Both the position numbers and the translations under genes were made by a program. Positions 12,301-56,259 of a stretch of 64,000 nucleotides of DNA are shown piece after piece (the first letter of the stretch is position 1; each line of letters opens with the position of its first letter). Below the pieces are notes generated by a model that searched no databases, was not told the origin of the DNA, and saw only the letters and a list, made by a program, of their open reading frames with translations. The DNA lies in contig CAXXMU010000006.1 of assembly GCA_963667785.2 (NCBI GenBank), positions 928,001 through 992,000 of the forward strand. The letters run 5' to 3'. This DNA comes from Alphaproteobacteria bacterium (GTDB taxonomy: Bacteria; Pseudomonadota; Alphaproteobacteria; UBA828).

Positions 12301-12450
12301 TGTCCGCCGTTAGAACGTTTCGCTCTATCCCGGTATGTCTCCACAACACTCTGAAATAAGGCTTTTCATGAATGTGTCGCGTCTTGCACGGCCTCACGCC
12401 ATCCCGTACAATCCCGTCTAGTATAGGGAGTGGGAAAGAGGGTAATCGCC

Positions 12451-13686
12451 ATGGCGGACGGTCGAAAACCGAAGGGCAAGCACCCTGACAAGGCCCTGAG
12501 CCCGGCCTTCGTGCGCAAGGCCTCGAAGCCCGGACGCTACAACGACGGCAACGGGCTGTTCCTGAAGGTCGACCCCTCGGGCGCCAAGCGCTGGGGACAA
12601 AGGCTTGTCATCCACGGACGGCAGCGCACACTAGGACTTGGCGGGTGTGCGCTTGTGACTTTGGCCGAGGCGCGAGAGGCCGCACTGGCGAATCGCAAGA
12701 TCGCGCGGGCTGGCGGTGACCCGCTGGCGCAGCGTCGCCTCACGACCGATACCCCGACATTCGAGTCTGCAGCCGCGACCGTCATCGAGCTGCACCACCA
12801 CGGATGGCGCAACGAAAAGCACGCCGCCCAGTGGGAGGCCACGCTGCGCACCTACGTCCACCCGCACCTGGGCAAGCGATCCGTCGCAGACATCACGACC
12901 GCCGACGTCATGGCAGTCCTCATGCCGATCTGGAACGAGAAGCCCGAGACCGCCCGGCGCGTGCGCCAGCGCATCTCCACCGTGATGAAGTGGGCCGTGG
13001 CGCAGGGCTACCGGGGCGACAATCCTGCCGGCGACGCGATCGGCGCGGCTCTTCCCAAGCACAACGGCAAGACCAAGCGCCATCATCGAGCCCTGCCGCA
13101 CGGGGAGGTTGCGGCCGCCATCGAGGCGGTACGTGGCTCCAACGCCGGGAGGTCCGTAAAGCTCGCCTTCGAGTTTCTGGTGCTGACGGCCGCGCGCTCG
13201 GGCGAGGTCCGGCTCGCCACCTGGGACGAGATCGACAGGGACGCGAAGACCTGGACCGTACCGGCTTCACGCATGAAAGCCGGGCGCGAACATCGGGTGC
13301 CGCTGTCCGAACGCGCGCTCGCGATCCTCGATGAAGTGCAGGCGCTCTCCGACGGAAGCGGCCTCGTCTTTCCCGGCACCCGAACCGGCAAGCCGCTCTC
13401 GGACATGACGCTATCCAAGCTCATGCGCGACCTAGACCTCGACGCCGTGCCGCACGGCTTCAGATCGAGCTTCCGCGACTGGGCGGCCGAGTGCACTAAC
13501 GCCCCGCGCGACGTGATGGAGGCGGCTCTGGCCCACACGGTGCGTGACAAGGTCGAGGCCGCCTACAACCGCACCGACCTGTTCGAGCGTCGGCGCGCGC
13601 TCATGGATCAATGGGCCTCTTACCTCGACGGCGCCGCCGGCGCCGTCGTGACGATGGTGCGCCGTAAGGGACAGGCAAATGCGTGA
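12451..13686 (+). CDS. P4-like tyrosine integrase with arm-DNA-binding domain
   Basis: 'PGRYNDGNGLFLKV..GAKRW' N-terminus; 'LTAARSGEV', 'HRVPLS', 'PHGFRSSFRDWAAE', 'LAH..VEAAYNR' catalytic motifs. Confidence 0.95.
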   Translation: MADGRKPKGKHPDKALSPAFVRKASKPGRYNDGNGLFLKVDPSGAKRWGQRLVIHGRQRTLGLGGCALVTLAEAREAALANRKIARAGGDPLAQRRLTTDTPTFESAAATVIELHHHGWRNEKHAAQWEATLRTYVHPHLGKRSVADITTADVMAVLMPIWNEKPETARRVRQRISTVMKWAVAQGYRGDNPAGDAIGAALPKHNGKTKRHHRALPHGEVAAAIEAVRGSNAGRSVKLAFEFLVLTAARSGEVRLATWDEIDRDAKTWTVPASRMKAGREHRVPLSERALAILDEVQALSDGSGLVFPGTRTGKPLSDMTLSKLMRDLDLDAVPHGFRSSFRDWAAECTNAPRDVMEAALAHTVRDKVEAAYNRTDLFERRRALMDQWASYLDGAAGAVVTMVRRKGQANA

Positions 13687-14652: not shown

Positions 14653-14904
14653 ATGTCTGGCGACGATCAGCTCTTGCGGCTGCCCGCCGTGACCCAGCTC
14701 ACTGGTGTTTCTCGCAGCCGAATCTACTTGCTCATGCAATCGGGCGAGTTCCCGCGCTCGCTGAAGATTGGCCCCCGCGCACGCGCCTGGAGCAAGCGAG
14801 AGATTCTCGACTGGATGGCGCAACGCCAGCGAACGCGTCCCGGCGAGATGCCGGCAACACCCTCAACCGGTTCATGCGCCGCACGGGCGCGCTCGCCCTC
14901 TTGA
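14653..14904 (+). CDS. alpA: AlpA-family transcriptional regulator/excisionase
   Basis: 'LLRLPAVTQLTGVSRSRIYLLMQSGEFPRSLKIGPRARAW...ILDW'; GGAGG RBS. Confidence 0.9.
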   Translation: MSGDDQLLRLPAVTQLTGVSRSRIYLLMQSGEFPRSLKIGPRARAWSKREILDWMAQRQRTRPGEMPATPSTGSCAARARSPS

Positions 14905-15386
14905 GCTACAGGAGCGATGTGGACCGGCTCTTGTCCTGCGCTTTCGATCTGCTGCTGCTGGACGCTCTCCAGAGAGTCCCCTTCACCCCTCACGGCATGT
15001 GGACGCTGGACAGGTATCTCAACGGGACGGCGCTTAGACTGCGGAGCAAGCTGGCGTTCCGCATCAACTACGACAGGGCTCGGGCCAAGGCGGGTCGTTG
15101 AGAGGAAGCATTGGACCGATGCGGCGCCGCGCCGTACCGGGCAAGCGAAGGGCCGACGGGATGGATACACGTCAGGTATTTAGCCTGATCCCGATGGTGG
15201 GCAGGAGATGGCCTGAGTAGCCAGGAGATAGATCGTTTGGAGGGTGCCGTGCCGTCTTCTGATCGGGAGTGGCCTGGAGGGATTTCCTGTGCCTATTGTC
15301 CAAGTACCTATTGGGTACCTGGTGGACGAAGGCGAAGAAGAGTTGAGCAGATACAGGACGTGCTCTGTTCCAGAAAACTTCCTCTC

Positions 15387-16457
15387 TCAATCCTCTGTGT
15401 TTTGTGGGACTGGCGGCCGCTCTTGCTGGATCACATCGACACGATCCTTGAGTGCACCAAAATCACTAGTGGCATTCTCCAGCCGTTCTTCGAGGTTCTC
15501 TATTCGCTCTGTAATGCTTTGAGCATTCTCGGTCGCCTGCTGCCGATCCGCCTTCACCTGCTGATGAACCTCATTCGTCGTTGTTACCACCTGACTCACA
15601 AGGGAATAACCTTGAACAATAATCGTAGCAATTGCCGCAACCACCAATATCGCAGTTGCAACACCTATCCAAGTGTAAAGTTTTCTGAATCGGTCGGTAG
15701 TGTCGCGTGATTTTTCGACAGAATCTCTAGCTTCTTCTGCCCCTTTTCGAGCTGTTTCAGCAGCGTTTCTGGTTTCATCCAAGGCTCCATGGAAAGCACT
15801 CTGTACTCCGCCTTGGGCGGTTACTCCGGATTTCAGAAAGTACGCAAGCGGATCGTCAAGGTCTTTTGCGTTGGGAAATGCTTTCAGATTCTCAGGTCTC
15901 CCTACACCCTCCTTATTATGCTGCTTCCAATATTCGCTTTCGGATAGTTTTGTAAATTCCACCCAAATAATCCCATCTCCACCACAAATTTCATAATTGT
16001 TATTTGTGAGGTTATGCAGCGGAATCAGTAGACTTCCCGAAAATCCAGAATCTACTAGTGGACCAGTTCCCAATAACAGACCCTTATGTACATGACGAAT
16101 GTGTAAGTTGAAACGCGCAGCGATATACTCCGGAAGAAACAATTGTTCTGCCATCCACAAATAAGTTATAGAGTTGCGGTGTAGTATAGTGGGTTTATCT
16201 TTCACTATTTCTCTACAACGGGGCTTCAATTGTCCTTCATCAGTGACAATCCAGTCATAAAGCTTGCCTAGAAACCGCATCTCGTATGACGCAGGCTTGA
16301 GAAGATCAGAGTCGAACGTCGCTTTGTCGAGAAGACATCCAATGTCGACATATTTCTTGATGTCAGCAGAATTCAGCAGCGCCGGAGCTATGTCTTGTGA
16401 ATAGGGATCATAGGCGTAGTTTTTGTTTTTCCGCCATTGTTGATGTGTTCTAGTCAT
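15387..16457 (-). CDS. dCTP-deaminase/dUTPase-fold protein with coiled coil, transmembrane helix and second coiled coil
   Basis: 'LLNSADI', 'KPASYEMR', 'LPEYIAARF', 'GPLVDSGFSGSLLIPLHNLT'; TM 'LYTWIGVATAILVVAAIATIIVQGY'; visibly AT-richer than the host genes. Confidence 0.8.
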   Translation of the reverse strand: MTRTHQQWRKNKNYAYDPYSQDIAPALLNSADIKKYVDIGCLLDKATFDSDLLKPASYEMRFLGKLYDWIVTDEGQLKPRCREIVKDKPTILHRNSITYLWMAEQLFLPEYIAARFNLHIRHVHKGLLLGTGPLVDSGFSGSLLIPLHNLTNNNYEICGGDGIIWVEFTKLSESEYWKQHNKEGVGRPENLKAFPNAKDLDDPLAYFLKSGVTAQGGVQSAFHGALDETRNAAETARKGAEEARDSVEKSRDTTDRFRKLYTWIGVATAILVVAAIATIIVQGYSLVSQVVTTTNEVHQQVKADRQQATENAQSITERIENLEERLENATSDFGALKDRVDVIQQERPPVPQNTED

Positions 16458-16490
16458 TCTGTAGTCCTTCCGACGACGATTATGCTAACA

Positions 16491-17555
16491 CTAATTCTGG
16501 TCGCTTTTCTGCGTGAACGGCTCGGTAAACCATCCGGATTGGGGACGGTCGATAATGCGGCTAGGGCCTGATCCTACATAGTTGATTTTCTGTCCCAATT
16601 GAGATTCGAGAAGCGAAACGCATTTGCCTGCTCGAGAGCTGATAGTAGCGGACTCGTGAATCGCATAGTCAAAATAGTCTACGTGATTGAGAAAAATCAT
16701 GTTTGGAGAGTTCGCCCGAAGTGCCCGGAGCACGACCTCGTCATGAAACTCAGCGACTCGGCGGGGTCGCCCAGTAACTGTAGTGAACTCTGTCAGGTTG
16801 ACGTTGGCTCCGCTGCTGCGTGTGATTGACTCCCATGTGGTCTCAAGAGGGAGAGGACCAGAATTTCCGTGCACACGGATGGGAAATGAGCGGATGACCA
16901 GGGCAACGCAGTCGACAAGACGTGGGCTCAGTCCCGCCTCGGACAAAGCTCCTGCCGCAGTTGTGTCGCGGCTAGTTGAATATGGGTAGTGCCCGCCGTG
17001 CAGAATTGATAGCCCGAAGCCTTGGGTGCCTTCAATCATGACACGTTGTCCGTCTTCGAGGGCGACGGCCAGGACGTCGTCTAGGTCAGGACGAACGAAT
17101 TCACGAAGGCACTCAATGGTACCGGCAAACGTGATCGACGATCTCCGCATCGCTCGTTGCGCCACGGCCCCACCCACTCCCTGTCCCGTGGATGCTATTC
17201 CTTCCAGCAAGCCTGCGGCGCGCTCATCTGCTCTCATCGAATCGTCCAGCACGACGGCCGACGGATGAATCAACAAGCGGTCTTTCGTGAGGCCAGTTTC
17301 TTCCATTTCGCGCATGAGAATGGTGGAATCGAGGTAGGCACCCGCAGGAACGATACCGATAACGTCGTCGGTCAGGATTGGTGTGGGAAGATGCTGAAGA
17401 ACAATGCGACGTCCGTCCTCGACCACAGTGTGACCCGAGTTCGGTCCTCCTACGCGAATCGCGTATCGCGGTCGTTGCAGGCGCGCCAGCCAGTGTGCGA
17501 CCTTGCCCTTGCCTTCCGAACCGTATTGGCCACCGACTACTATGGTTACCGGCAT
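16491..17555 (-). CDS. Adenylosuccinate synthetase paralogue, PurZ0/PurZ-like
   Basis: 'GGQYGSEGKGK', 'GGPNSGHT', 'IEGTQG', 'YPYSTSRDTT', 'FPIRV', 'TTVTGRPRRV', 'NHVDY'; 354-aa short (archaeal/phage-type) form. Confidence 0.85.
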   Translation of the reverse strand: MPVTIVVGGQYGSEGKGKVAHWLARLQRPRYAIRVGGPNSGHTVVEDGRRIVLQHLPTPILTDDVIGIVPAGAYLDSTILMREMEETGLTKDRLLIHPSAVVLDDSMRADERAAGLLEGIASTGQGVGGAVAQRAMRRSSITFAGTIECLREFVRPDLDDVLAVALEDGQRVMIEGTQGFGLSILHGGHYPYSTSRDTTAAGALSEAGLSPRLVDCVALVIRSFPIRVHGNSGPLPLETTWESITRSSGANVNLTEFTTVTGRPRRVAEFHDEVVLRALRANSPNMIFLNHVDYFDYAIHESATISSRAGKCVSLLESQLGQKINYVGSGPSRIIDRPQSGWFTEPFTQKSDQN

Positions 17556-19756
17556 GCTAAGCGTTCACCTATTGTGTTTCGCAGGATGGTCTCCAGGTCT
17601 TGAATGGTGCCGTTGTTGTCGAGTGTAGAGTCTGCTAAGCTCCGCATGACTTGCACGTTCTGCTCAACCGGGTGGGTGTCAGCACGACGGAAGGCGTCTT
17701 CCGATGCATCTGCCTCCGAAGTGTATCGTCGGGCACGAAGGGCCAAGGTCGCTTCGACGTGAAGGTGGAGGGCCGTGGTTCCCCATCTTTCGCGCAAGAA
17801 GGCTCTATCCTCAGGGTGTCTCAACCCGTCAACCACAACCCGTGAGTAGTGTTCGACGCACGCGGCCAGCTTGTTTTGGAGTTGTCGTTGTCCGAAGCGG
17901 CTGCGATGAGCTTCCTCGCCGAATTCCTGAAGGGCGTCCCTCGTGACCGGGGTTCCACGTGCGCGAAGCTCTCTCGCAATGATTTCGCTGAATCGGCAAT
18001 ATTTAAATCCCATGCATTCCAATAATCTCGCTGCAGTGGTCTTCCCTGCCGCGATCGGTCCGCTAAGGCCAACCGCGATGGTGGATCGGAGATCAGGCGA
18101 GCGACGGTTGACCGTTGGCACGACCAAGTAGTCCTCCTCTGTGCTTCCGAGTGCTTCCCAGTAGCCTGCGAGCATGAACTGACCAACCAGGGCGGATGTC
18201 GTTGCGTCGAGTTCGTCATGAGAAACCCTGAGTTCGGTGCCAAGGTCAGCGTAACCGAAGCGGCGCAAACCTTCGGTGAGGTGTTTCAGGCTTGTCTTTT
18301 TTCTAGGGATCCCCAAGATGTCCTGGGCAGCTCCTGGGTAACTCTCAATGACGGGGATGCCAAGTTTCCTCAATCGAGTCGCTAAGTCGACGCCACGCCT
18401 AGTTAATCTCTGCATACTGGGAAGCAGCGCTGGATAAACATGAACGCCCCTACTGCGAAGTATGCGTTCTGCTTCTCGAACGATTCCAAACTCGCTGCGG
18501 CCAGGATCGTCGTCAAATTCCGAGATTCGTCCCTCTGGAAGTGAGAGTGGGGAGTCGATTGAAACGAGAAAGGGTTCGGTGTCCAAGGTTCTCTTGATTA
18601 AGTCGGCATCTGATGCGACCACATTCATCGTCAGATGTTGGCCCGTCAACGCCGCCCATCCCGACTTGCGTTTCTCGCTGCCGGTCAAATCAAGCCCGAC
18701 GATGGTGATGTCATCCAACATTGGTGCGTTCTCACGCAGCTCTGAATAAGTGAGTCTCGGACCGACGGTACCAGTGTATGGACTGATGGATATGGCATTG
18801 CCGTCGCTGACGGCTTCAGCATGCGGGAAGTAGATGCTCGATCGGGGGAAGAGGCCGCTGTTTGAAGAGAGCATGACGGTGGGATGTACTACCCGGCGGA
18901 TGACCTCCTCGAAGAGAAATTTCATGCCTTCGATATCGGCATGATTGTAGCGTACCAGTTCGCGTAAGGCGTTCAGGTCGCCTTCCTTGTAGTCGAACCA
19001 TAAGGATACAGCTTCGGCTCCTGTGATTCCGCTGAGTGACCCTTCGCGGGTAAGTCCGATCTCTTGCTCGATTTTCTTCTGCCCTCCGGTCAAGCCGACC
19101 CGCTTGGCCAAGTAGCGAAGGTCGACATGACACAGGCCGGACCAATCCGTCTCGAAGTGCTTGGTGAGAAACGGGAGGTCGAACAAGGACCCGTTGAAGG
19201 TCACCACGATGGGATGCTCGTGTAGATCATGTTCGAGCTGAGCGACCTGGCTGGGGTCGACCAGTACCGTGTAAGTGCCGCCGACGGACCAGCCAACTAG
19301 GGTGACTTGATCGTAGTGAGGGCTCAGGCCCGTGCTCTCGATGTCGAGGAACACAGAGCTTTCGGGGAAGGTGGCGGCGATACGGTAGAACTCACGCTTG
19401 GGCAGTTTTCGCGCGAAGAACTTGATGTCACGAGTGGCGAGAGCCTCCTCGGAAGCCTCCACGGCGGACTGCAGCGCACTGGCGCTCTTGCGGTAGAGGT
19501 CGAGCTGGATCGGTGTGTGGCGGATGAGCTCCATCCAATCGGAGACGCCCTGGGCCCATAGCCTAGCCTCCGCCGCCGCGGAGATTCTCGGAAGGTGCAG
19601 AAATGTGCGACGGAGCAACTTTGCTTCGGGCATGGGCAGGCAGCGACCCGTCGTTGGGACCTCGGCACCGAGAACTTGTAGCACAAAGCGTGCCAGAGCA
19701 ATGTGGTGTGGTTCGGCGCCTAGTACTGTGGTAATTAGGTTAACGAATTCAGACAC
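17546..19756 (-). CDS. Fusion of YprB-like RNase H/DEDD exonuclease, DUF429 domain and P-loop nucleotide kinase
   Basis: 'FLDIESTGL','VTFNGSLFDLPFL','YNHADI'; 'VGLDLTG','IDSPLSLP','IESYPGAA','HDELDA'; 'GLSGPIAAGKTT','VVDGLRHPED','DNNGT'. True start may be ATG 19633. Overlaps the PurZ-like start. Confidence 0.8.
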   Translation of the reverse strand: MSEFVNLITTVLGAEPHHIALARFVLQVLGAEVPTTGRCLPMPEAKLLRRTFLHLPRISAAAEARLWAQGVSDWMELIRHTPIQLDLYRKSASALQSAVEASEEALATRDIKFFARKLPKREFYRIAATFPESSVFLDIESTGLSPHYDQVTLVGWSVGGTYTVLVDPSQVAQLEHDLHEHPIVVTFNGSLFDLPFLTKHFETDWSGLCHVDLRYLAKRVGLTGGQKKIEQEIGLTREGSLSGITGAEAVSLWFDYKEGDLNALRELVRYNHADIEGMKFLFEEVIRRVVHPTVMLSSNSGLFPRSSIYFPHAEAVSDGNAISISPYTGTVGPRLTYSELRENAPMLDDITIVGLDLTGSEKRKSGWAALTGQHLTMNVVASDADLIKRTLDTEPFLVSIDSPLSLPEGRISEFDDDPGRSEFGIVREAERILRSRGVHVYPALLPSMQRLTRRGVDLATRLRKLGIPVIESYPGAAQDILGIPRKKTSLKHLTEGLRRFGYADLGTELRVSHDELDATTSALVGQFMLAGYWEALGSTEEDYLVVPTVNRRSPDLRSTIAVGLSGPIAAGKTTAARLLECMGFKYCRFSEIIARELRARGTPVTRDALQEFGEEAHRSRFGQRQLQNKLAACVEHYSRVVVDGLRHPEDRAFLRERWGTTALHLHVEATLALRARRYTSEADASEDAFRRADTHPVEQNVQVMRSLADSTLDNNGTIQDLETILRNTIGERLACR

Positions 19757-20221
19757 TTATCGTTCAAGCCAGTATCGACTTGGAGCAAGGACTGGCATGA
19801 GGCGGCCAAGGGAGCATGGCCGAGGATGAAATAACTGGAGAGTGTGGAAGAGCCGGAACGCGACCAGGAGGGCTAGAAACGTCTTGACGCTAGGACATCT
19901 GTCCTGTCGAACGGTGCATGATCGGACCGGACGTGAGCGGGAGAACTGGGCTAGGCTGTCATGGAGGTCTGAGCTGGGGATAGGGCGGTAGATGTTGCTA
20001 TTTTGTTCTATTTGAGTGAGAATGGTGTTCGATCGGGTGATTGAAGACCAAGCCCTTGGGGATAGTGGAGATGGGTCTAACAGGGCGGAAGTGATCGCGT
20101 TTCCCGCCACGGGTGCCGGCAGCAATGCCGATTCGCGCCGATCGTCTCGAGAAACGGCGGGCGGGGGTTCTCCGAGGAGAAGTAGAACGGTTCGCTCTAG
20201 AGTCGCAGCAGGTGGAAGCGG

Positions 20222-23161
20222 ATGACAGAGCCGATCCTGAATGAGGTGCTGGAGGCTACCGGCTATCTATCTGACGGTGAGCCGGCACACGGTGTGTACC
20301 TGAGTGGGGAAGCCGATGGGCTACCCAGATTCCGCGATTTTTCGCCCGATGCGCTGTGGCGGAGCGAGTCGGCACTGACCGTCTATTTCAAGTACGAAAG
20401 TGAAGATCCTTCCGAGGAACAGATCGCAGCGTGGCAGCGCGAAATATGGAATCACGGGTTCGCGCCGCTTCTGTGGGTGATTTCGCCCGAGAGCATTGGA
20501 GTCTACAACGGCTTCAGCCGGCCTCGAGAAGCTGGAAACGCGACGGTGCATCTGCTGGACACGTTCGGTCGGATCGAGGAGGAGCTCGACAGGCTCGATG
20601 CACTCGCCGGTCGGCTTGCAATGGAGACGGGTGAGTTCTGGCGCCGGGCGCGGTCTGTGCACCGTAGAACGTGCGTCGACCGGCAGCTCCTGTCGGATTT
20701 GGGCTCACTCGAGGGGGACCTCGAGTCGGAGGACCTAGATCGTCCCGGTGCGCAGGGTCTGATTGGACGTTCGATATTTGCCCAGTATCTGATCGACCGG
20801 GGAATCGTTACGCGCGAATTCTTGGAAAGCGAGTACGGTCACGGGACGCTCTCTGACATACTACGGGATCGCCAAGCTACGAAAGAACTATTCGACTGGC
20901 TTCGCGATACCTTCAACGGCGATATGTTTCCTGCGGAGAGTTCGGGCCTACCGGGAACGCGACATTTGCAGCGGGTCGCAGACTTCCTTGACGCTGTGGA
21001 TCCAGAGTCGGGACAGAGAACATTCTTTCCATATCAGTTCGACGTGATACCGGTCGAGTTGATCAGCTCGATCTACGAACAGTTCGCGAATTCCGATTCG
21101 GAGCCCAACGATGATGAGAGTGAGGAGGATGTCCATTATACGCGACTGTCGCTTGTTTCTCTGGTCTTGGACGAGATCGCCGACGGATTGGGTGGACGTG
21201 AAACAGTCCTTGACCTGAGCTGCGGGTCGGGGGTGTTTCTGGTGGAAGCCCTGCGAAGGCTGGTCGTGCACCGCTGCAACGGGAAAAGGCCAAACCGCAG
21301 GGTGATCCGTTCTGTGTTGTACGATCAAATCTATGGCGTCGACATTAGCGAGGCCGCGGTGCGCGTCGCCGCGTTCAGTCTCTACTTGGCCGCGCTGGAA
21401 CTCGACCCGAATCCGAGACCGCCGAAGGAGCTTAGGTTCAGGCCTCTCATCGGTAGAACTCTGTTTATCGCCGATTCTCGAAACGTAGAAGAAACGCCGG
21501 AGGGCAGGCGGGCTTTGACGGAAGGGGGCGAACGAAGGGCATTCGATGTCATCGTTGGGAACCCGCCGTGGAGCTACCGAGGCAAAAAGGCCCGGGCAGC
21601 TGCAAATTCGACAAGCGAATCGAGAGGCATCCGCGCGCCACGGGGCGTGAGCCTGGACTTCGTCTTGAGGGCCTTGGATTTTGCAACTCCTGATACGCGA
21701 TTGGGCATGGTCTTGAGCGGCGTCCAGTTCTTCAGCCGCAGCGGAACGGGAGCGGCCGTGTTGCGGGGCCTTTTGGAGGAGCTTTCTCCGGTAACATTGG
21801 TGAACCTGTCGTACCAGTCGAGCTGGCTGTTTCCGCGGGGTAGCCTGCCAGCAATGGTCCTCTTGGCGAGGCACCGGCCTTCCACACATGACGCAATAAC
21901 AGCTGTGCAGGTGCCATGGTCGCCGGCGGGAGAGCAAAGCCATACATTTGAGATTGCGCGCGAGGACATCGTAACGCTGCCGATCTCCGATTGGATGCGT
22001 AAGCCGGAGTGCCTGAAGACCGCCTTTTTCGGGCTGGGTCGTGATTTGGCGCTGTTGGACAGGCTGACTGATCGCTATCGGTCACTAGGAGAGCAACTAC
22101 AGGCTCTGGATACCGAGTTGCGCGGCGGCCTCAAGTATGGAGACCGCAGCCGCGATGCGCGCTTTCTTCAGGATCTTCCTGTGCTGACCAAGACGGACGT
22201 GCGGCCATTTGTCGTGTCGGACGGCCTGCATCAATTCGATAGCGATTGGGCAGAGCGTCCGCGGAGCCGTGAAACTTATCGGGCGCCGTTGGTCTTGGTC
22301 CGGGAATTTGTTCAGGCAGGGGGTCGTGCAGTGTGCGCGGTGGCTGAGCGGGATGTTGTGTTCACCGATGCCCTCTTGGGTGCGACGATCCCGCGCGAGA
22401 AAGTTGGGATAGCCTATTTGATCGCGTCAATACTAAGTTCCTCGCTCGCATCGTGGTTCTTCTTGATGACCGGTTCGACCTTCGGGCTGTCGATGCGACG
22501 TTTGCTACTCCGGGACATCGAACACCTCCCAATTCCGTCTCTGGACAGGGCGTGTCGGTCGACGGCTGGGCAGCGGCTGATCGAACTTGGTCGACGGCGC
22601 AGAACGGATCGGCTGGCCGGTCGGGACTGGCGAGAGATTGATGAGGCGGTATTTGATCTCTACGAACTGGACGAGGCGGATCGCATCGTCGCTCGTGATG
22701 GGCTGGTCCGGGCGGGATGGCAGTGGAAATCTGGCAGGGTTGCATCGGCAAGGGCGGCCGAAATGGATGCGGACATGCTTATCTATGCCCAAACGTTCCT
22801 GTCAGCGGTCGATGCTTGGCTTGCCGAGGGAAAGCGACGCCGCATGAGGGGCGAATTATTTGATCTTTCCGCGAGCGCGCCGTACCGCGTGGTTCGCTTT
22901 ATCCTGGAAGATGAGATCGGTCCATCGACGACGGGCCTGGTAAGGACGGAAGGCAGACTGCGGGATGTGCTCGACCGGATCGGAGAACGGTTGAATGTGC
23001 GCATCGGAGAGGCCTTGGTGGGTCAACGCGCGTTGCGGGTGTATGGCCCGAACGAGGTTGTAATCATTAAGCCGGCTGCTCGCCGACACTGGATGGGCGT
23101 GTCGGCGCTGGATGATGCCGATGCCGTAGTCAGCGACAGCCTTTCAGGACTTGCGGGGTGA
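20222..23161 (+). CDS. Large N6-adenine DNA methyltransferase (Eco57I/type IIG-like)
   Basis: 'IPVELISSIYEQF', motif I 'DLSCGSGVFL', 'YGVDIS', motif IV 'IVGNPPW', C-terminal TRD-like region. Confidence 0.9.
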   Translation: MTEPILNEVLEATGYLSDGEPAHGVYLSGEADGLPRFRDFSPDALWRSESALTVYFKYESEDPSEEQIAAWQREIWNHGFAPLLWVISPESIGVYNGFSRPREAGNATVHLLDTFGRIEEELDRLDALAGRLAMETGEFWRRARSVHRRTCVDRQLLSDLGSLEGDLESEDLDRPGAQGLIGRSIFAQYLIDRGIVTREFLESEYGHGTLSDILRDRQATKELFDWLRDTFNGDMFPAESSGLPGTRHLQRVADFLDAVDPESGQRTFFPYQFDVIPVELISSIYEQFANSDSEPNDDESEEDVHYTRLSLVSLVLDEIADGLGGRETVLDLSCGSGVFLVEALRRLVVHRCNGKRPNRRVIRSVLYDQIYGVDISEAAVRVAAFSLYLAALELDPNPRPPKELRFRPLIGRTLFIADSRNVEETPEGRRALTEGGERRAFDVIVGNPPWSYRGKKARAAANSTSESRGIRAPRGVSLDFVLRALDFATPDTRLGMVLSGVQFFSRSGTGAAVLRGLLEELSPVTLVNLSYQSSWLFPRGSLPAMVLLARHRPSTHDAITAVQVPWSPAGEQSHTFEIAREDIVTLPISDWMRKPECLKTAFFGLGRDLALLDRLTDRYRSLGEQLQALDTELRGGLKYGDRSRDARFLQDLPVLTKTDVRPFVVSDGLHQFDSDWAERPRSRETYRAPLVLVREFVQAGGRAVCAVAERDVVFTDALLGATIPREKVGIAYLIASILSSSLASWFFLMTGSTFGLSMRRLLLRDIEHLPIPSLDRACRSTAGQRLIELGRRRRTDRLAGRDWREIDEAVFDLYELDEADRIVARDGLVRAGWQWKSGRVASARAAEMDADMLIYAQTFLSAVDAWLAEGKRRRMRGELFDLSASAPYRVVRFILEDEIGPSTTGLVRTEGRLRDVLDRIGERLNVRIGEALVGQRALRVYGPNEVVIIKPAARRHWMGVSALDDADAVVSDSLSGLAG

Positions 23162-23829
23162 GGCTGCCGATCGACGTTCCGGTTGTAGCCGGCCGGCCAT
23201 TTGTCACGCTCGCGCGCGAGATTGTGGCAGGGATTTTACGGATCGTTGAGGACGGTTGGGCTCGGACGCTAGCGTCGTCAGACGTGGGGGCAGACAACGG
23301 GGAAGTGGAGATCACCGAACGGCTGCGGGAAGGGATGCGAGAAGCGGCCAACGCGCGGAAGATCGAGATCAGACTGGTCGTGCTTCCGGGCACCGAGTCA
23401 CGGTCGCGCCCAGGCATCTTGAGGCCGGACGGGAGAACGGACATTCCGCTGTTGGTGATCGAAATCTTCTTGCGTTACGGAGAGCACGATCCGCACGCGG
23501 TGATTGAATGCAAGCGAGTGGCTGGTTCAAGGGCGGATCTGTGTCGTGCATATGTCGTAGAGGGCATCGACAGATTTCGATCTGGAAAATATAGCGGGAA
23601 TCACGCGACCGGATTCATGATTGGCTATCTGGTGGCTGGAGATGCTAACTCAGCAGTGTTGGGCATAAACCGGTACCTAGAGGGCAAGTCGCGAGTCGCA
23701 GATAGTCTGGATCGCTCAAGTCTGGTTGCGGCCTCCTGGGCGTGGCAAAGCGTTCATCTACGTAGCGGAGGATTGTCGATCGAGCTGCATCATGCATTTC
23801 TAGCGTTCGCCGCTTTGGCCCGTGGATAA
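23158..23829 (+). CDS. Putative PD-(D/E)xK nuclease coupled to the MTase
   Basis: GTGA overlap with the MTase; 'E-ITE...GRTDI...VIECKRV' pattern. Confidence 0.65.
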   Translation: MRLPIDVPVVAGRPFVTLAREIVAGILRIVEDGWARTLASSDVGADNGEVEITERLREGMREAANARKIEIRLVVLPGTESRSRPGILRPDGRTDIPLLVIEIFLRYGEHDPHAVIECKRVAGSRADLCRAYVVEGIDRFRSGKYSGNHATGFMIGYLVAGDANSAVLGINRYLEGKSRVADSLDRSSLVAASWAWQSVHLRSGGLSIELHHAFLAFAALARG

Positions 23830-25533: not shown

Positions 25534-25578
25534 CTCATAACCTGAAGGTCGAAGGTTCAAGTCCTGCCCCCGCAACCA
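25534..25578 (+). tRNA. 3' half of tRNA-Met(CAT), initiator-like; att fragment, not a complete tRNA
   Basis: CTCATAA anticodon loop, GGTTCAAGTCC T-arm, CCCCGCAACCA end; the upstream sequence does not form D or acceptor arms. Confidence 0.85.
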
Positions 25579-27216
25579 CCGAGACCGACATCTCCGGCAT
25601 GGGGATGTCGGTCTTCGTGTTTTCGCGCCCGTTTCCAGCCCATTCGAGGATCGCACCAAGATCGCCGTGCAGCACGGCGTCCATCTCGGCCCATTTCTCG
25701 CTCGGGGTGAGCACGATGCGCTCGATCAGGCCGCGGATGGCCGCCGCCGCCGCGTCGCGGTCCTCCGGATGGTCCAGCGCTTCGGCAAGCCGCGCCACCT
25801 TGCGCCGGTAGACGTCCGCGATGTTGGGGTGGATGTCCGGGAGGTCGGCGGGCGCCGCTGACAGTCTCTCGTTCAGCTCGTCCTGGCGCGCCTCCAGCTC
25901 GCGCAGCCGGTCCACCATACCCCGGACGTAGCCGCCGTCCTCGATGACGGCGATCATGGCGGCGATCTTCGTCTCGACCTGGGCCAACTCCTTCCGGTCG
26001 CTCGCGCCCGAGGCGCGGCGCTCCCGGTTGATCCGGTTGGTCTCCTCGGCCCAGGCCCGCATCGCCTCGGCGGCGGCCTCCGGCGCCATCAACCGGTCCT
26101 TCGGCCCGGACAGCACGCGCTCTTCGATCACGGAGCGGCGGATGCCGCGGCCGTTCGAGCATGTGCCGGTCATGATGTGGTTGGAGCAGCCGTAGCGGTC
26201 CTGGCCGCGCATGGAATAGGGGCCGCCGCAGACGCCGCATTCGAGCAGGCCCGAGAGCAGGTGGCGCGGCCGGTGGGCGCCGTTCAGCCGGTAGGCCCGC
26301 ACGCTTTGCGTGGCCTCGATGACGGTGGCGTATTGCACCGTGATCTCGCCCTGGCGGTCCTTCACCGCCTTCCAGAGATCGTCGTCGACGATGCGGAGTT
26401 CGGGCACATCCGCGACGATCCACTCCTCCGGCGGGTTGATCCGCGAGACCCGCTTGCCGGTCTCCGGGTTCTTGACGTAGCGCAGCCGGTTCCACACCAG
26501 CCGGCCGATATAGAGCTCGTTGTTGATGAGCCCCGCGCCCCGCTTCGCGTGGCCCCGGATGGTGGTATCCATCCAGAGCTTGCCCGAGGGGCCGGGGACG
26601 CCTTCCCCGTTCAGCCGCCGCGCGATCGCGCGCGGGCTGGCGCCGTCGGCAAACTCCCGGAACACCCGGCGCACGATCTCGGCCTCGGCTTCGTTGACCG
26701 TGCGCCCGCCGCGGACCGGATCGCCCGCGCCGTCGAACGACTTCACCACGTCGTAGCCGTAGCAGAGACCGCCGCCCGACTTGCGGCCTCGACCCGGCCG
26801 CGAAGCCCCCGGTGCGTCTTCGCCGCGAGGTCCTTCAGGAACAGCGCGTTCATCGTGCCCTTGAGCCCGACATGGAGCTCGCTGATCTCGCCCTCGGCCA
26901 GCGTCACCACCGTCACCCCGGCGAAGCGCAGGTGCTTGTAGAGCGTCGCCACGTCCGCCTGGTCGCGGCTCACCCGGTCGAGGGCCTCGGCGAGCAGGAT
27001 CTCGAACATCCCCCGCCGCGCGTCCTCCAGCAGCGCCTGGATGCCGGGACGCAGGATCATGCTGTCGCCCGAGATGGCGGAGTCCTTGTAGGCACCCGCG
27101 ATCTTCCAGCCCTCGCGCCCCGCGCGCTCGCGGCAGACCCGGAACTGGTCCTCGATCGACGCCGCCCGCTGCTGGTCCGAGGAGTAGCGGGCGTAGAGCG
27201 CGCAGCGCAGGGTCAT
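25535..27216 (-). pseudogene. Large serine recombinase, frameshifted near 26785
   Basis: 'ALYARYSSDQQ..SIEDQ', 'EALDRVSRD', Zn ribbon 'LSGLLECGVCGG..YGC..C'. The frame breaks at GRVEA/(G)KSGGGLCYGY by a 1-bp loss, either real or a sequencing error. Confidence 0.88.
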
Positions 27217-28500: not shown

Positions 28501-31101
28501 TCAAGAACCAAGTCGTTGTTCAAGGTGCTGGGCGAACGTTCCATTATCGGTTTCAGGGGGAACTTTTGCCAACAAGTTATCGAGATCGCCCGGACCGTAT
28601 GCGGTCAGCTCGTACCTGTCGATGCCGCACCACCTTGCAATCGTCTCGTCGAGTTCGTCGGTGTGCTTCGCTAAAGTCGTCAGCATCATCTCGGCGCCGC
28701 GCTCCGCGTGGGCGTCTCGTGTCTCCGACATTGAAATCAAATCCAGATAAGTCCAAGCGACCATAGAGTGCACGCCGCGCATTCCGGGCTTGATGAGCTC
28801 GGTGCGCATCAGCTTCCGCTCTTTAAATTCAGGCTTTTTCAGAGTAAATCTGCCTTTTCCTGCGGTTCTGTCCTGCACGAAAGACCAAATGACATCGGGA
28901 ATTGTCCCGTTGTCCTGGCCTCCATCGGAAAAAAACAAGTGGTGAATATAGGTTGCCACGTTGGAGAGGTAGCAGGCCATCGGAGAGAGGCGGCGGATCA
29001 CAGTCCCTCTCGCCTCCGTGATATCGATCGACTTGTCGGGCTGGGGTTCCGAGGGCAGTTCTCCATCGTCCGACGGGACTAGTTCCGCAACCTTAACGCC
29101 CTTCCAGACGCCTTCGGGTTCGACCTCTCGTATCTCGAACAGGCGAGGCTGGCCGTGCGTGTCGATTACCCTGAGGAGATCCTTTGCACTGCAGCGCCGC
29201 CAGACCGGCATTGACTCTGAATAGCGGACTTGTGCGGTCAAGGTTCCTGTCTCCGTGGCCTCCGGGCTAATGTCCACCTCCACGGATCGGACGTCGAACC
29301 TTCGGTAGACCGGGACGAAGCTGTCCGTATTGCCCCCCGTTTCGAGCCTCCAAGCCGTTCCTGAGCGAACCGCGCGTCTGTAGTCTTCCTCGCTCTCATA
29401 GGTTCCAACGACGGCGGAAATCTCGGTCTCCCTATTGTCGAACCGAAGGTTTCCGGGGTTTAGGTCGGCGAAATACATTCCCTGCTTGTGGATGCCGTCG
29501 ATCATCCGCGTAAGTTGGCGCAGGCGCAGGGCGCCCATGAGAAGGCGTTTCGGTGCCGGAAGGTTCCGCATTTCGACAAGTTTCTCAAGAAACGTTTCGC
29601 TTTTCTGAGCGGTTTCGCTCTTCGAAACATCATCAGCCCAGATCGGACTCGAACCGAGCCTGCCGGGGACCCTAGTGCCAACCACCAAGCGTGCAAGATC
29701 GTCCTGAATCCCGGAGAACAACTTCATGCGATTGACCGAACCGTCTTCCCCGCGGGACTGCTCGTAGTAGGAATCGCGCTTTCTGGACAGCATGCAGCGG
29801 AAAAGGACGGCGATGATCCCGTCCGACGGGAACTGGCCGTGCACATGGTCCCGGACTTGGTCGAACAACGGTGCCATATCTGCGGAAGTGGATGTCGCGC
29901 CCGATGCTGCCCTGTATCGATCGACGAGGACCTCCACGCTAGCCACGCCGGCGTCGCCGGATCGATCGAAGGGTCGCAGATGGTCGTAGAATCCCTCGGG
30001 TGACTTGCCAACGGTCAGCAAGTCGAACAACAAGGCACCAAGGCCGAAGACATCCGTGCGCAGCGATGGCTTCTTGTAGAACATGACCTGAGTTCTGTCG
30101 TCTTCGAACTCCTTCTTCCGTGCGGCCTTGAGGGTAATTTGGGAGCCTCCGCCGTTCAGGTGCTCCACTCCTATGACCTCATATCCCTTCTGTTCCCCAT
30201 CCTTCGAGAATACGGCAACATCGTTGCCTTCCATCAGCGTGTCGCGGAACTTCATGTCGGCGGTATGGAGAACGAGGCGTTGTCCTCCGTCGGGCACTTC
30301 CACCTTAACCTCGCACACGTCGAAAAAATCCTTCTGCTCGGGGGAGCGATAGTGGCGCGTCCCCGGAGGCAAGGCAGACTCGTAACCCGACGCGTGTCCA
30401 GAAGGCAGCACCTCGAGGAATCCGAAGTCACCGAGCGCGACTTCGACATCGTCACCCTTGCTTCGCAACATGACGTTTGCCGGCTTGATGTCGTGATGAA
30501 ACAGCTTCGCTGCGTGCAAGGCACGAAGGCCCGTGGCGACTTGGCTGACAATTTCGACAATGTGGCCTTCTCGCTCGGCAATGGTGAGATTCCTGAGCAC
30601 CTCGTAGCCCGGAGGCCCTGGCTTGTCGATCGTGCGCCCTTCTACAAGCCGACCGGCCGGAGCGCCTGCCTCCAAAACGTCCTTTAGCGTGCATTCGTAG
30701 TAGGGCATCACCAAGGCTTGATCCGACACCGAGACTCCGAGCTGGGCAAATTTGTCCTTCAGAGATTCGTAAGATTCACTCGAACAGAAATTCTCGGTCC
30801 AAGCAGTAGAGAGGACGAGATTCGACTCCAGTCCTTCGAGTTTGTGGCGACTCAACTCATCGCGGACTCGGACACCAGCGCGCATTTCATAACCGTTCCT
30901 GGCCCCCGAAATGTCTTCCTTCTTCACGGGATAGAACAGCTTGACGGCGCATCTCTGGTTCGCCGGATCTCTCGCCTCGAACACTGAGCCGTAGGACCCG
31001 TCTCCCAGTTTACGAGGGACTCCGTTGCTATCGACGACGAAGCGATACAGCAGTCGCTGGGCTGTATCTTCTTCTGTGGCCTGGGCCTCGAAGCTATACA
31101 T
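28501..31101 (-). CDS. Hanks-type Ser/Thr kinase with large inserts and a second degenerate kinase-like region
   Basis: 'LGDGSYGSV','AVK','HHDIKPANV','DFG','GTRHYRSPEQ','DVFGLG'; second 'MYFADLNPGNL'. Confidence 0.85.
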   Translation of the reverse strand: MYSFEAQATEEDTAQRLLYRFVVDSNGVPRKLGDGSYGSVFEARDPANQRCAVKLFYPVKKEDISGARNGYEMRAGVRVRDELSRHKLEGLESNLVLSTAWTENFCSSESYESLKDKFAQLGVSVSDQALVMPYYECTLKDVLEAGAPAGRLVEGRTIDKPGPPGYEVLRNLTIAEREGHIVEIVSQVATGLRALHAAKLFHHDIKPANVMLRSKGDDVEVALGDFGFLEVLPSGHASGYESALPPGTRHYRSPEQKDFFDVCEVKVEVPDGGQRLVLHTADMKFRDTLMEGNDVAVFSKDGEQKGYEVIGVEHLNGGGSQITLKAARKKEFEDDRTQVMFYKKPSLRTDVFGLGALLFDLLTVGKSPEGFYDHLRPFDRSGDAGVASVEVLVDRYRAASGATSTSADMAPLFDQVRDHVHGQFPSDGIIAVLFRCMLSRKRDSYYEQSRGEDGSVNRMKLFSGIQDDLARLVVGTRVPGRLGSSPIWADDVSKSETAQKSETFLEKLVEMRNLPAPKRLLMGALRLRQLTRMIDGIHKQGMYFADLNPGNLRFDNRETEISAVVGTYESEEDYRRAVRSGTAWRLETGGNTDSFVPVYRRFDVRSVEVDISPEATETGTLTAQVRYSESMPVWRRCSAKDLLRVIDTHGQPRLFEIREVEPEGVWKGVKVAELVPSDDGELPSEPQPDKSIDITEARGTVIRRLSPMACYLSNVATYIHHLFFSDGGQDNGTIPDVIWSFVQDRTAGKGRFTLKKPEFKERKLMRTELIKPGMRGVHSMVAWTYLDLISMSETRDAHAERGAEMMLTTLAKHTDELDETIARWCGIDRYELTAYGPGDLDNLLAKVPPETDNGTFAQHLEQRLGS

Positions 31102-31909
31102 GGTCGTCTCCTTCCGTACGTTCACGCAGCAGCAAAAAGTGCTGCGGGAACACACCCGGTCGCCGGTCCGTTCCCGTCAATCGCCATGCCGCGTCGTACA
31201 CGTTCCGGTCCACCGTCACTAGAATCGGGTTTGTCGATGCTTCCCCGTTCTCCGACCCCACCGGAGTCGGAGTCCCGAGCGGAATGCGTTTGAAGGACCA
31301 TTTGATGTCGCCTTTCTTGGACGCGGTTTGCCGGTTGCGGCCAAATGAGATCATGTCGTTCAGACCAACGCCCTTCAGCTTCGTTCGGTCTTCACGGTCA
31401 AAGTGGACCCTCTGTCTGCTCCGTCGGGGACCTAGCATTGTGAAATCGACATATTCGACGTCGCCGAACACAATCACCTTTACCCAGGGAGCAATCTCCA
31501 ATTCGGTTTCGCCTTGGCCACCACCCTGCTCGTCGAAGACCAAGTGCGGGTAAAGACGGTACCGCACCGGAGCAAGGTCCAGCCTCACTTCACGTCGTTC
31601 GCCAGGCTCCGTTCCTGAGCGCGCGGCGAGCGCCTCGTCGGATGTCGCGATGACCGTCCCGTTTCGCGGGTCTTCGAGGGTGAGTTGCGGAAGCGAGGGG
31701 AATGTTGAGGGTGCCACCGACGTGCCTGGGGCCGAGTCTGCATCACCGGCCGCGACCTGGATGTAGATCGGGAAGTTCTCGATACGCAAGATGGTCGGGC
31801 TGTTGATATTGACGCTGCCCACAAGACTGCCGACAAGACTCGGATGGATCTGGAACAGACCATTGAGGGCAGTACTCAATAACCAGTTCATCAATTCATT
31901 GCCATTCAT
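31094..31909 (-). CDS. Hypothetical protein co-operonic with the kinase
   Basis: 271-aa ORF with AGAGG RBS; its stop overlaps the kinase start. Confidence 0.6.
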   Translation of the reverse strand: MNGNELMNWLLSTALNGLFQIHPSLVGSLVGSVNINSPTILRIENFPIYIQVAAGDADSAPGTSVAPSTFPSLPQLTLEDPRNGTVIATSDEALAARSGTEPGERREVRLDLAPVRYRLYPHLVFDEQGGGQGETELEIAPWVKVIVFGDVEYVDFTMLGPRRSRQRVHFDREDRTKLKGVGLNDMISFGRNRQTASKKGDIKWSFKRIPLGTPTPVGSENGEASTNPILVTVDRNVYDAAWRLTGTDRRPGVFPQHFLLLRERTEGDDHV

Positions 31910-42336: not shown

Positions 42337-42521
42337 CCGGCATAGATAGGGGCGGCAGGAGAATCGCAAAACCGCTTCCGGTATGGCAAATCCTGCGAAT
42401 CATACGTCAGGCCCCGCCAGGCACCGCATGCCCCCTCAGAGCGGTGAAAAAAGTTTTGCCCAGTGCCTATGCGCCCCGAATGCTCCGGGCTGGAATGGGC
42501 TGAGAGGAACCGTACGGATTT

Positions 42522-42554
42522 GCCTCAATGAGGCCGGGGCGCGCACCCAGGATG
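42522..42554 (-). repeat. Solitary CRISPR-repeat-like unit
   Basis: gcctcaatgaggccggggcg matches the array repeat gcttcaatgaggccggggcg at 19/20 nt. Confidence 0.75.
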
Positions 42555-42944
42555 TCGCCACTGATGCGGCAGGTCTGAAGACCATAGAGGGCGATGCCCG
42601 TCGTTCGGGCAATCGGCGTTCAGGCGATCGCGAACATGCGGAAGCGTCGATGTGGCGAAACCGGCACTCAGCTGGCTGACGCCGTGCGTGCCGCGAGGTC
42701 GAAGGGGGCGCTGCGGTGCCGCCGGGATTGACGCGGTTCACGCAGCCGTGCAGGAAATGGTCGATGTATGGAGACGGCGAGGCCATCGGCATATCTGGAC
42801 CGAAGCACGTGTTGCGAGAACGGTGGCGGCGCCCGACGAGCAACAGATTCCGCTGGTGCGCTTGGTGACGACCGGGAGGCTGGATCGACGAGCGATCATC
42901 TGATCGCTATGGCAGTATCTCCAGCTAGGGAGGCGAACCAAACG

Positions 42945-51070: not shown

Positions 51071-51072
51071 GC

Positions 51073-56258: not shown

Positions 56259-56259
56259 A

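Follow-up and report, generated by a model that had tools for sequence, protein, structure and literature searches.

A PurZ-like adenylosuccinate synthetase paralogue in a recurrent bacterial gene cassette: a candidate sister lineage of phage PurZ and PurZ0

Adenylosuccinate synthetase (PurA) has close described relatives in the phage enzymes PurZ and PurZ0. PurZ is known from phages phiVC8 and S-2L (family NF038379; 6FM1, 7ODX), while PurZ0 is known from Gordonia phage Archimedes (7VF6; PMC12884076), from Ghobes and from Arthrobacter phage Wayne. Asp13 is the essential catalytic base of PurA and is kept in 99% of canonical sequences; all 147 phage sequences of the PurZ group examined have Ser at this site (PMC12884076, section 24). 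In PurZ, Gln308 of S-2L and Asn297 of phiVC8 take the place of Asp333, a change that is tied to the use of adenine nucleotides, ATP or dATP (PMC8342488). The gene described here, named PurX, lies in a 64,000-nucleotide (nt) stretch of an alphaproteobacterial genome of lineage UBA828 (GCA_963667785.2, contig CAXXMU010000006.1, positions 928,001 to 992,000; hereafter the window). PurX is the middle gene of a cassette, between a nuclease/DUF429/kinase gene and a membrane-anchored DCD-like gene. The reading favoured here, which is held tentatively and with slightly less than even confidence, is that PurX may be a GTP-dependent ligase of aspartate and guanylate or deoxyguanylate ((d)GMP) in an accessory, probably anti-phage cassette that reroutes deoxyguanylate.

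16491..17555, minus strand: PurX, a PurZ-like short adenylosuccinate synthetase paralogue; ATG open reading frame (ORF) of 354 amino acids in the six-frame ORF list

Pfam PF00709 matches PurX at E 4e-43 and 148.1 bits (cut-off 27); PurX is therefore a real homologue and not a chance motif. Residues were compared in an alignment of PurX, E. coli K-12 PurA, the host PurA, two short Asp-type PurAs, the cassette relatives, PurZ0 of Ghobes and Wayne and PurZ of phiVC8 and S-2L; the literature numbering of E. coli PurA leaves out the initiator Met. PurX has Ser13 at the Asp13 position, Ile226 at the Thr271 position (FPIRV; YSTRV in E. coli) and Gly262-Arg263 at the Gly302-Arg303 positions. Asp293 in its NHVD motif corresponds to Asp333 of the E. 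coli motif TKLD and to the motif Asp of Ghobes and Wayne PurZ0; the same position is Asn in phiVC8 PurZ and Gln in S-2L PurZ. After the Val273 position there is a two-residue insertion, which gives RV-HGNSG in PurX and RV-AGNSG in PurZ0 (FPIRVHGNSG and, in 7VF6, FPIRVAGNSG).

The original prediction, made from the sequence and an ORF list, had read Ser at Asp13, Ile at Thr271 and a retained Arg303 and base-motif Asp in this ORF. The ORF list and the alignment with E. coli PurA agree with it, and the translation contains every string that it quoted (GGQYGSEGKG, SFPIRV, TTVTGRPRR and LNHVD). It took the first two changes as marks of PurZ-type enzymes; both are indeed common to phage PurZ0 and PurZ, but a role for Thr271-to-Ile was found in none of the texts consulted. 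It also held that the retained Asp fits a GTP-using PurZ0. This is right for the residue, which is the one found in PurA and PurZ0; PurZ0 reportedly uses GTP. Section 24 of PMC12884076 says that PurZ0 and PurZ prefer 'ATP and GTP, respectively', which contradicts both its own introduction, where PurZ uses ATP, and PMC8342488; the order in that section seems to be inverted.

Residues were counted in 75 usable relatives out of 80 genome loci; L016, L020, L024, L065 and L070 are unusable due to an internal stop, absence of the motif or identity to another row. Ser13, Ile226, Gly230, Ser232, Gly233, Asn290, His291 and Asp293 are each present in 75/75 relatives. The same is true of Lys16, Asn39, His42, Thr123, Gln178 and Arg265, while Arg266 is present in 74/75. 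According to their roles in the E. coli literature, Lys16, Asn38, His41, Thr129, Gln224 and Arg305 are presumably the remaining catalytic and binding residues of PurA; all are present in PurX and in 75/75 relatives. Since the residues of the phosphate, aspartate and GTP sites are invariant, PurX has probably retained catalysis as an active ligase. The Arg263 site is variable (Arg in 29 relatives, Lys in 21, Thr in 8, Asn in 5, Ser in 4, Ala in 2, and others), and Gly262 is mostly replaced by Lys, Arg or Asn, like in PurZ and PurZ0; by these counts, Gly-Arg at 302-303 is a trait of PurX's own subclade.

PurX resembles PurZ0 in its short PurA scaffold, Ser at Asp13, an FPIRV or YPIRV motif with Ile at Thr271, the RV-x-GNSG insertion and the retained base-motif Asp; both also have a gene of the dUTPase superfamily close by. 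PurX differs from PurZ0 in several respects. The two are 34-36% identical, PurX falls in a separate, well-supported bacterial clade, and PurZ0 has Asn-Lys at 302-303 where PurX has Gly-Arg. In addition, PurX is found on chromosomes or plasmids, where its partners are nuclease, kinase and membrane proteins and where DpoZ, DmtZ and DUF5664 are absent. With PurZ it shares Ser13, Ile271 and the same Ser-type clade; in contrast to PurZ, it keeps Asp333, has GSEGKG instead of GSTGKG, and has no DatZ or MazZ neighbours (tblastn over the window). The archaeal-type short PurA of Pyrococcus horikoshii shares with PurX the length class, the deletions relative to long PurA and the GTP-type Asp, but the archaeal enzymes keep Asp13 and Thr271 and have no GNSG insertion.

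No curated NCBIfam family model is reached by PurX at its cut-off, and all PurA equivalogs fail. PurX scores 253.1 bits on NF003295 (archaeal-type short PurA; cut-off 368), where true members score 520-562 bits, 218.3 on NF038379 (PurZ; cut-off 300), 180.7 on TIGR00184 (purA; cut-off 395.55) and 148.4 on NF002223 (cut-off 402). Among PDB sequences, P. horikoshii PurA (2D7U/5K7X) is the best match, at full length and 172.5 bits, followed by 7VF6 (149.2 bits), E. coli PurA (about 127), phiVC8 PurZ (111.8) and S-2L PurZ (101.6). The host genome (14 contigs) has a canonical full-length purA elsewhere (G000:C2:93046-94302, 565.4 bits), so PurX is a paralogue, as originally predicted. Together with the scores below all PurA equivalog cut-offs, this means that PurX is not the housekeeping purA.

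PurX could also be an ordinary second adenylosuccinate synthetase, using IMP, aspartate and GTP, that is carried by a mobile element for purine salvage. The public annotation 'adenylosuccinate synthetase' and the retention of all phosphate-, aspartate- and GTP-binding residues, as well as of Arg303 in PurX's subclade, would be expected of such an enzyme. It is very improbable, given that Ser replaces the Asp13 base in all relatives counted, that every PurA equivalog cut-off is missed and that PurX lies in a clade apart from both long and short Asp-type PurA (100/100). Moreover, PurX is accompanied by nucleases, kinases and a dUTPase-fold protein and not by purine genes.

Asp-type short PurAs for the phylogeny were sought by scanning metagenome contigs (at least 120 stretches) for the Asp P-loop motif. 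NF003295 is passed by two complete short ORFs, L169 (339 amino acids, 561.8 bits) and L233 (336 amino acids, 520.5 bits), and by the partial ORF L212 (543.4 bits). The tree has 95 rows (IQ-TREE, LG+C20+F+G4, ultrafast bootstrap/SH-aLRT) and uses long PurA as the outgroup, on which its root depends. L140 and L146 are left out as they have no P-loop motif, and 63 rows that are more than 62% identical to a kept row, L212 among them, are also left out.

Long PurA (8 rows) separates from the short clade at 100/100. The two Asp-type short PurAs pair at 99/91 and are sister to a Ser-type clade of 85 rows (100/100, branch length 0.54). This clade has two branches. The first (98/81) holds PurZ, PurZ0 of Ghobes and Wayne and 27 IMG/VR rows. 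The second (93/69) consists of four groups: L121 with three kinase-fused forms, the IMG/VR rows L090-L092, L096, and the cassette clade of 46 rows that includes PurX (97/94). In this tree the Ser-type group thus has a third lineage, which is bacterial, contains PurX and is neither canonical PurA nor PurZ0/PurZ. The original prediction named phylogeny as a check; PurX does fall outside canonical PurA and inside the Ser-type clade with PurZ and PurZ0, but as a sister bacterial lineage and not within the clade of either phage enzyme.

In the sections of PMC12884076 concerned, PurZ relatives are treated as phage sequences plus four archaeal ones and no bacterial lineage is mentioned; of its 298 prokaryotic PurA homologues, 52 lie outside the canonical clade, and their positions are given in Supplementary Fig. 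S8. The phiVC8 record JF712866.1 carries, at CDS phiVC8_p27, a 2011 annotation of PurZ as 'similar to Solibacter usitatus [YP_827486]'. Since this note names a Solibacter usitatus protein, the depositors had already met a bacterial (Acidobacteria) relative.

A scan of 185,579 species genomes gives 512 pattern matches, of which 506 encode a PurX relative; the best 80 loci, which come from at least 16 named phyla, were analysed. The two neighbours of PurX in the window are as follows.

17546..19756, minus strand: upstream gene, 736 amino acids, exonuclease-like, DUF429 and P-loop kinase parts; ORF with Pfam RNase_H_2 97.4 bits and CoaE 28.4 bits
18905..19354, minus strand: RNase_H_2 domain of the upstream protein (PolB-exonuclease-like, DEDD-type), residues 135-284; PF13482, E 1.2e-27, 97.4 bits
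18155..18697, minus strand: DUF429 domain of the upstream protein (RNase H-like fold), residues ~354-534; PF04250 22.1 bits, cut-off 23
17594..18076, minus strand: P-loop nucleotide-kinase-like domain of the upstream protein, residues ~561-721; CoaE 33.9 bits and AAA_18 28.2 bits when scanned alone
15387..16457, minus strand: DCD-like gene, 356 amino acids; Pfam DCD (PF22769) 26.6 bits, cut-off 27; TIGR02274 36.5 bits
15933-16376, minus strand: divergent dCTP-deaminase/dUTPase-fold domain of the DCD-like protein, residues ~28-175; Pfam DCD and TIGR02274
15615..15671, minus strand: predicted membrane anchor of the DCD-like protein, residues 263-281; Kyte-Doolittle 19-residue window, mean 2.60

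Both partners recur. When the 736- and 356-residue proteins of the window are compared with the 80 loci by tblastn, a homologue of the upstream protein is found beside PurX in 74/80 and one of the downstream protein in 69/80. Both are present in 64/80, and in 57/80 the genes are colinear, on the same strand and within 400 nt. Four of the 11 loci without a DCD-like tblastn match have a divergent DCD-like gene in place (Pfam DCD 36.2-55.4 bits). Three Acidobacteriota loci (L016, L023 and L049) have no DCD-like match by tblastn or Pfam; an ORF of 614-709 amino acids follows PurX there (L016:7935-9779, L023:8097-10226, L049:8059-10185). The two of these ORFs that were scanned, those of L016 and L023, have a C-terminal AAA domain, and that of L023 also matches PADLOC IetA (62.7 bits).

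A fourth gene of about 200 codons, for a deoxynucleoside kinase (dNK; PF01712, 70.4 bits), follows the DCD-like gene in 46/80 loci; in most relatives it is just downstream and on the same strand. Its matches to PADLOC VakA reach 20.5-39.7 bits. It accounts for 23 of the 125 ORFs in a flank survey of 32 loci, which covers the two nearest ORFs of at least 150 amino acids on each side; the loci come from the 36/80 in which the cassette is contiguous and has 4 kb or more of sequence on each side, after removal of four near-duplicates.

The distribution of the cassette is sparse and patchy: of 400 other genomes sampled from the host's phylum, one has the DCD-like partner. Its carriers include the culturable non-pathogens Nitrosomonas halophila Nm1, Nostoc linckia z4 and Lacibacter sp. 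MH-610. Relatives are also found in nine plasmid records, seven of them conjugative. On a Sinorhizobium medicae plasmid, a two-gene form lies beside AbiEii and toxin-antitoxin genes. In a metagenome-assembled genome of Binatia, an IS66-family transposase is located between the PurX and DCD-like genes (L018:8612-9784); this copy of the cassette is probably disrupted.

The stop of the upstream gene overlaps the start of PurX by 10 nt. In 31 aligned homologues of the upstream protein, the DxE, NGxxFD and YNxxD positions, the acidic residues of DUF429 and the P-loop positions G563, G566 and K572 are invariant; this argues that all three parts are active. The PF04250 match covers positions 1-206 of the 214 in the profile, and a weak PADLOC PDC-S44 match falls on the same DUF429 domain. 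Cassettes of the Bacillota type have a module of HhH and PolX-type PHP exonuclease in place of the DEDD domain. One such locus, L029, scores 57 bits for PHP, 37.6 for HHH_8 and 269.5 for NF006375 (PolX) over profile positions 335-569. This swap between non-homologous exonucleases points to a needed activity at DNA ends.

The kinase domain also occurs in another arrangement. An N-terminal P-loop kinase is fused to a Ser-type PurZ-like ligase in IMG/VR proteins of 527-537 amino acids (L095:5470-7053, L098:5452-7041, the latter with the same coordinates as L106, and L161:5416-7026). The Agrobacterium rubi plasmid pW2_73_2 encodes a 537-residue 'adenylosuccinate synthetase' (L290:5449-7062) with the length and position of such a fusion. 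The upstream-kinase profile matches the kinase part of L098 at 98.8% probability (hhalign, E 6e-17), and the fused forms L095, L106 and L161 cluster in the tree, within the main branch that also contains the cassette clade. Since the kinase domain ends the upstream gene, whose stop overlaps the PurX start, the domain order in the window, kinase then PurX, is the same as in the fusions. Fusion of the same kinase family to PurZ-like proteins in other lineages suggests functional coupling of the kinase and PurX.

The DCD-like protein consists of the fold domain, a linker, one transmembrane-like segment and a variable coiled-coil tail. A comparable hydrophobic window is present in 35/35 aligned homologues and in 130/132 full-length representatives; the median of its start is residue 264. 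In a 50%-identity library of 1.84 billion representatives, 373 clusters belong to the family at E<=1e-30. The nearest ESM Atlas clusters are named 'hypothetical protein', and PF22769 is assigned to 54-62% of their members. The 35 aligned homologues conserve GTGPLVDPGF followed by LIPLHNLT; Arg115, Asn117, His148, Asn149, Glu167 and Lys170 are invariant and the Asp of dUTPase-type motif 3 is nearly so. The catalytic Glu of dCTP deaminase presumably sits in a T-L-E motif after the D-P-G-F motif; the aligned position in the DCD-like homologues is an invariant Pro (LIPLHN). Against the Dut-like proteins of phage Ghobes, the DCD-like profile gives a weak match to gp55 (hhalign, 42% probability, 53 columns) and no match to the other. 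By this comparison, the DCD-like and phage Dut-like proteins share a superfamily only.

The membrane segment raises the question of whether the cassette signals. Once products of DNA degradation arise during infection, the ligase and kinases could make a nucleotide with a modified base, for instance a phosphorylated deoxynucleotide of succino-2-aminoadenine; the dUTPase-fold domain would be its sensor and not an enzyme, and membrane disruption would abort the infection. Effectors of abortive-infection systems commonly combine a nucleotide-binding domain with a membrane segment. The near-universal single membrane segment with its coiled-coil tail and the invariant Pro at the deaminase Glu position fit a sensor, and signalling by base-modified nucleotides has been reported (bioRxiv 10.1101/2024.12.20.629578). 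However, the invariance of the motif-3 Asp and of many polar residues fits an enzyme equally well, a single membrane helix is a weak pore former, and the DCD-like gene is never swapped for another typical effector in the examined loci, where divergent copies are still DCD-like. A signalling role is unlikely on this evidence; it stays alive because a purely metabolic model leaves the membrane anchor unexplained.

The favoured, metabolic reading can be set out in steps. PurX would be an active ligase of the PurZ/PurZ0 kind, in which GTP drives the joining of aspartate to a guanine nucleotide, probably deoxyguanosine monophosphate (dGMP); the product would be N6-succino-2-amino-(deoxy)adenylate. 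A guanine rather than a hypoxanthine nucleotide is suggested by Ser13, Ile226 and the PurZ0-type insertion, and GTP as the donor by the retained Asp293. That the substrate is a deoxynucleotide is suggested by the dNK gene, by the DNA exonucleases and by the similarity to PurZ0 phages. The Dut-like gene dutZ, the product of which yields dAMP and dGMP, is present in each of the 98 genomes of PurZ0 phages (PMC12884076).

PurX would act as the core of a mobile cassette of three to four genes, and the partner proteins could all feed or drain the PurX step. The membrane-anchored dUTPase-fold protein may convert deoxynucleoside triphosphates (dNTPs) to monophosphates (dNMPs), like the Dut-like DutZ beside PurZ0. 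The net effect would be that deoxyguanosine nucleotides are collected as dGMP and drawn out of the dGTP pool. Host PurB and kinases would then convert N6-succino-2-amino-dAMP to dZTP, a 2-aminoadenine (Z) nucleotide; host PurB and kinases make dZTP during phage infection (PMC8342488, introduction). In E. coli the Z-cluster has a toxic effect, and A and Z are not distinguished by Klenow polymerase (PMC8342488). An accessory antiviral role would be in line with a drain on dGTP or with the poisoning of DNA during replication.

The cassette lies within a region of lowered GC content, 0.53-0.59 across 14-24 kb of the window compared with about 0.73 in the flanks. The following other features are found in and around this island.

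12430..13686, plus strand: P4-type tyrosine integrase; Phage_int_M, Arm-DNA-bind_3 and Phage_integrase
14653..14904, plus strand: AlpA-family regulator/excisionase-like gene; PF05930, E 9.8e-18
20222..23161, plus strand: type IIG restriction-modification enzyme, 979 amino acids; PADLOC REase_MTase_IIG 152.2 bits, Pfam Eco57I and N6_Mtase
28501..31155, minus strand: Ser/Thr protein kinase, defence-kinase-like, 884 amino acids; PADLOC mad6 68.8 bits and PD-T4-6 60.2 bits, Pfam Pkinase

About 480 nt of non-coding DNA separate AlpA from the DCD-like gene. The start of a 223-residue ORF with no family match (23158-23829, plus strand) overlaps the stop of the type IIG gene. Another ORF with no family match (271 amino acids, 31094-31909, minus strand) adjoins the gene of the 884-residue kinase; these two may form a second defence element of the island. 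A serine-recombinase-like ORF (25535-26749, minus strand) has only Recombinase and zinc-ribbon domains, with no resolvase catalytic domain detected; it may be truncated or its start may be mis-set. The high-GC flank (about 0.73) holds a single ORF of 3453 amino acids (1616-11977, minus strand). Further stretches of lowered GC at 42000-58000 (0.57-0.64 compared with about 0.70-0.73) suggest more acquired DNA. No convincing att-like direct repeat was found at the bounds of the island, and there is no tRNA gene in the window. Promoter and terminator scans of 14900-20300 give counts at or below the shuffled expectation.

An integrase and AlpA nearby could also mean that PurX is a phage PurZ0 left behind by the decay of a Z-genome prophage. 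A few phage-like IMG/VR contigs do carry close relatives: L084, L089, L090, L091 and L092 have phage-like gene maps with many short co-directional ORFs. Their PurX-like genes fall near or inside the cassette clade and have no nuclease-kinase or DCD-like neighbours; small ORFs (119-191 amino acids) lie just downstream, and the three that were scanned have no Pfam match. This origin can be given next to no credence. Of 50,697 phage records, 208 match PurX, all at less than 60% identity and the best at 35.8%; most of them are annotated as PurA-like or as the 2-aminooxy adenylosuccinate synthetase of PurZ/PurZ0 phages. The same cassette recurs in chromosomes across many phyla, PurX lies outside the PurZ0 clade, and the window has no homologue of DatZ, MazZ, DpoZ or Dut-like proteins.

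The last point rests on tblastn of the whole window with S-2L MazZ and DatZ, phiVC8 DatZ, Wayne DpoZ and the Dut-like proteins of Ghobes and Wayne. Nothing better than E 0.008 is found, and this best match is the dUTPase core motif of the neighbouring DCD-like gene. The original prediction had reported no DatZ, MazZ or DpoZ nearby, which is upheld. It had also called the gene non-phage, which agrees with the integrase/AlpA island and with the absence of phage structural genes among the ORFs scanned with Pfam or PADLOC. Its conclusion that a Z-genome programme is unlikely here is sound for full genome replacement; synthesis of Z nucleotides is nevertheless possible given the dUTPase-fold neighbour, which it overlooked.

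The 125 flanking ORFs include three type I R subunits, two RmrA and two mad2 genes as well as methyltransferases, five of which belong to the RlmJ/RsmJ family (PF04378, best E 1.1e-81). No biosynthetic or export genes are seen beside the cassette of the kind that a nucleoside-antibiotic gene cluster would have. The accessory setting, with its island, rarity, conjugative rhizobial plasmids and type IIG and kinase genes, is suggestive of defence. Prokaryotic viperins are known to make antiviral nucleotides. The cassette may also be compared with defences that act on nucleotide pools, anti-phage dCTP deaminase and dGTPase: all are perhaps accessory island genes acting on deoxynucleotides, and the kinase domain of the upstream protein matches a kinase-like region (positions 150-322) of the PADLOC dCTPase model with 31.7 bits. 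However, there is no shared core enzyme, and the known system has a zinc deaminase to which the dUTPase-fold protein is not related. The literature searched holds no description of a PurA-like gene in a defence cassette, save for one sentence in a 2026 preprint (10.64898/2026.01.15.699771).

That sentence links an adenylosuccinate-synthetase operon 'for synthesis of modified bases' to PUA-like defence modules, and it would fit a further explanation, in which DNA, incoming or the cell's own, is resected by the exonuclease and then receives a modified purine deoxynucleotide; other systems would read this as an epigenetic-like mark. The cassette has as fixed components two nuclease-type domains directed at DNA, or HhH with PolX-PHP, the RlmJ-family genes are found in the flanks of some loci, and in the window a type IIG gene adjoins the cassette. 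Such marking is decidedly improbable, as the cassette has no polymerase, transglycosylase or ligase that would install the base and no reader protein is conserved beside it; the operon of the preprint may be the PurX cassette or a different one.

Several points weigh against a (d)GMP ligase in an anti-phage cassette. Firstly, Arg303 of PurA touches the ribose O2' (2'-OH) and aspartate (PMC8342488), so that Gly-Arg at this site leaves GMP, and even IMP, as possible substrates of PurX. Secondly, the window has no dNK gene, and tblastn with 23 proteins of the fourth cassette gene finds no remnant in the ~480 nt before AlpA. Thirdly, the analogy with DutZ is loose, due to the weak similarity of the DCD-like protein to just one phage Dut-like protein, and a membrane anchor with an external coiled coil has no role in a purely metabolic model. 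The tree itself has limits: its Ser-type rows were gathered by motif patterns, one of which includes Ser itself, and it is anchored by only two Asp-type short PurAs. Finally, known defence genes flank only a minority of loci, and housekeeping genes (tRNA synthetases, Pol I, the Pol III alpha subunit, topoisomerase) are found in the flanks too; as the flank counts are raw, with no background rate, the association with defence islands is suggestive only. Among the models of PADLOC-DB 2.0, PurX matches 0 families and the DCD-like protein gives coiled-coil noise only.

A wider scenario is doubtful. Bacteria may use the Z chemistry of phages against phages: a widespread mobile cassette would convert deoxyguanosine nucleotides, released by its exonuclease, dNK and dUTPase-fold partners, to succino-2-aminoadenine and 2-aminoadenine deoxynucleotides, and dGTP starvation would be accompanied by Z-poisoned phage DNA or by a base-modified alarm that triggers the membrane protein. 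As PurZ, PurZ0 and PurX would share a Ser-type ancestor, the Z-genome pathway may have passed between defence islands and phages instead of running straight from archaeal PurA to phage.

What appears to be new, against the literature searched, is a bacterial, cassette-borne sister lineage of PurZ/PurZ0 with fixed partners. Relatives whose public names were checked are called 'adenylosuccinate synthetase', and two also carry 'purine nucleotide biosynthetic process'. As they have lost the catalytic Asp and their neighbours are not genes of purine synthesis, the name would mislead metabolic reconstructions. The published series, in which archaeal PurA leads to PurZ0 and this to PurZ, is complicated by a large bacterial sister lineage, and cellular enzymes make it possible to test where Z-genome chemistry came from. 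The fixed partnership with an exonuclease, two kinase types and a membrane-bound dUTPase-fold protein would represent a so far uncharacterised pathway of deoxynucleotides that bears the hallmarks of an accessory system and may be antiviral. If PurX is indeed dGMP-specific and GTP-driven, the lineage would offer a varied range of catalysts for the production of 2-aminoadenine nucleotides.

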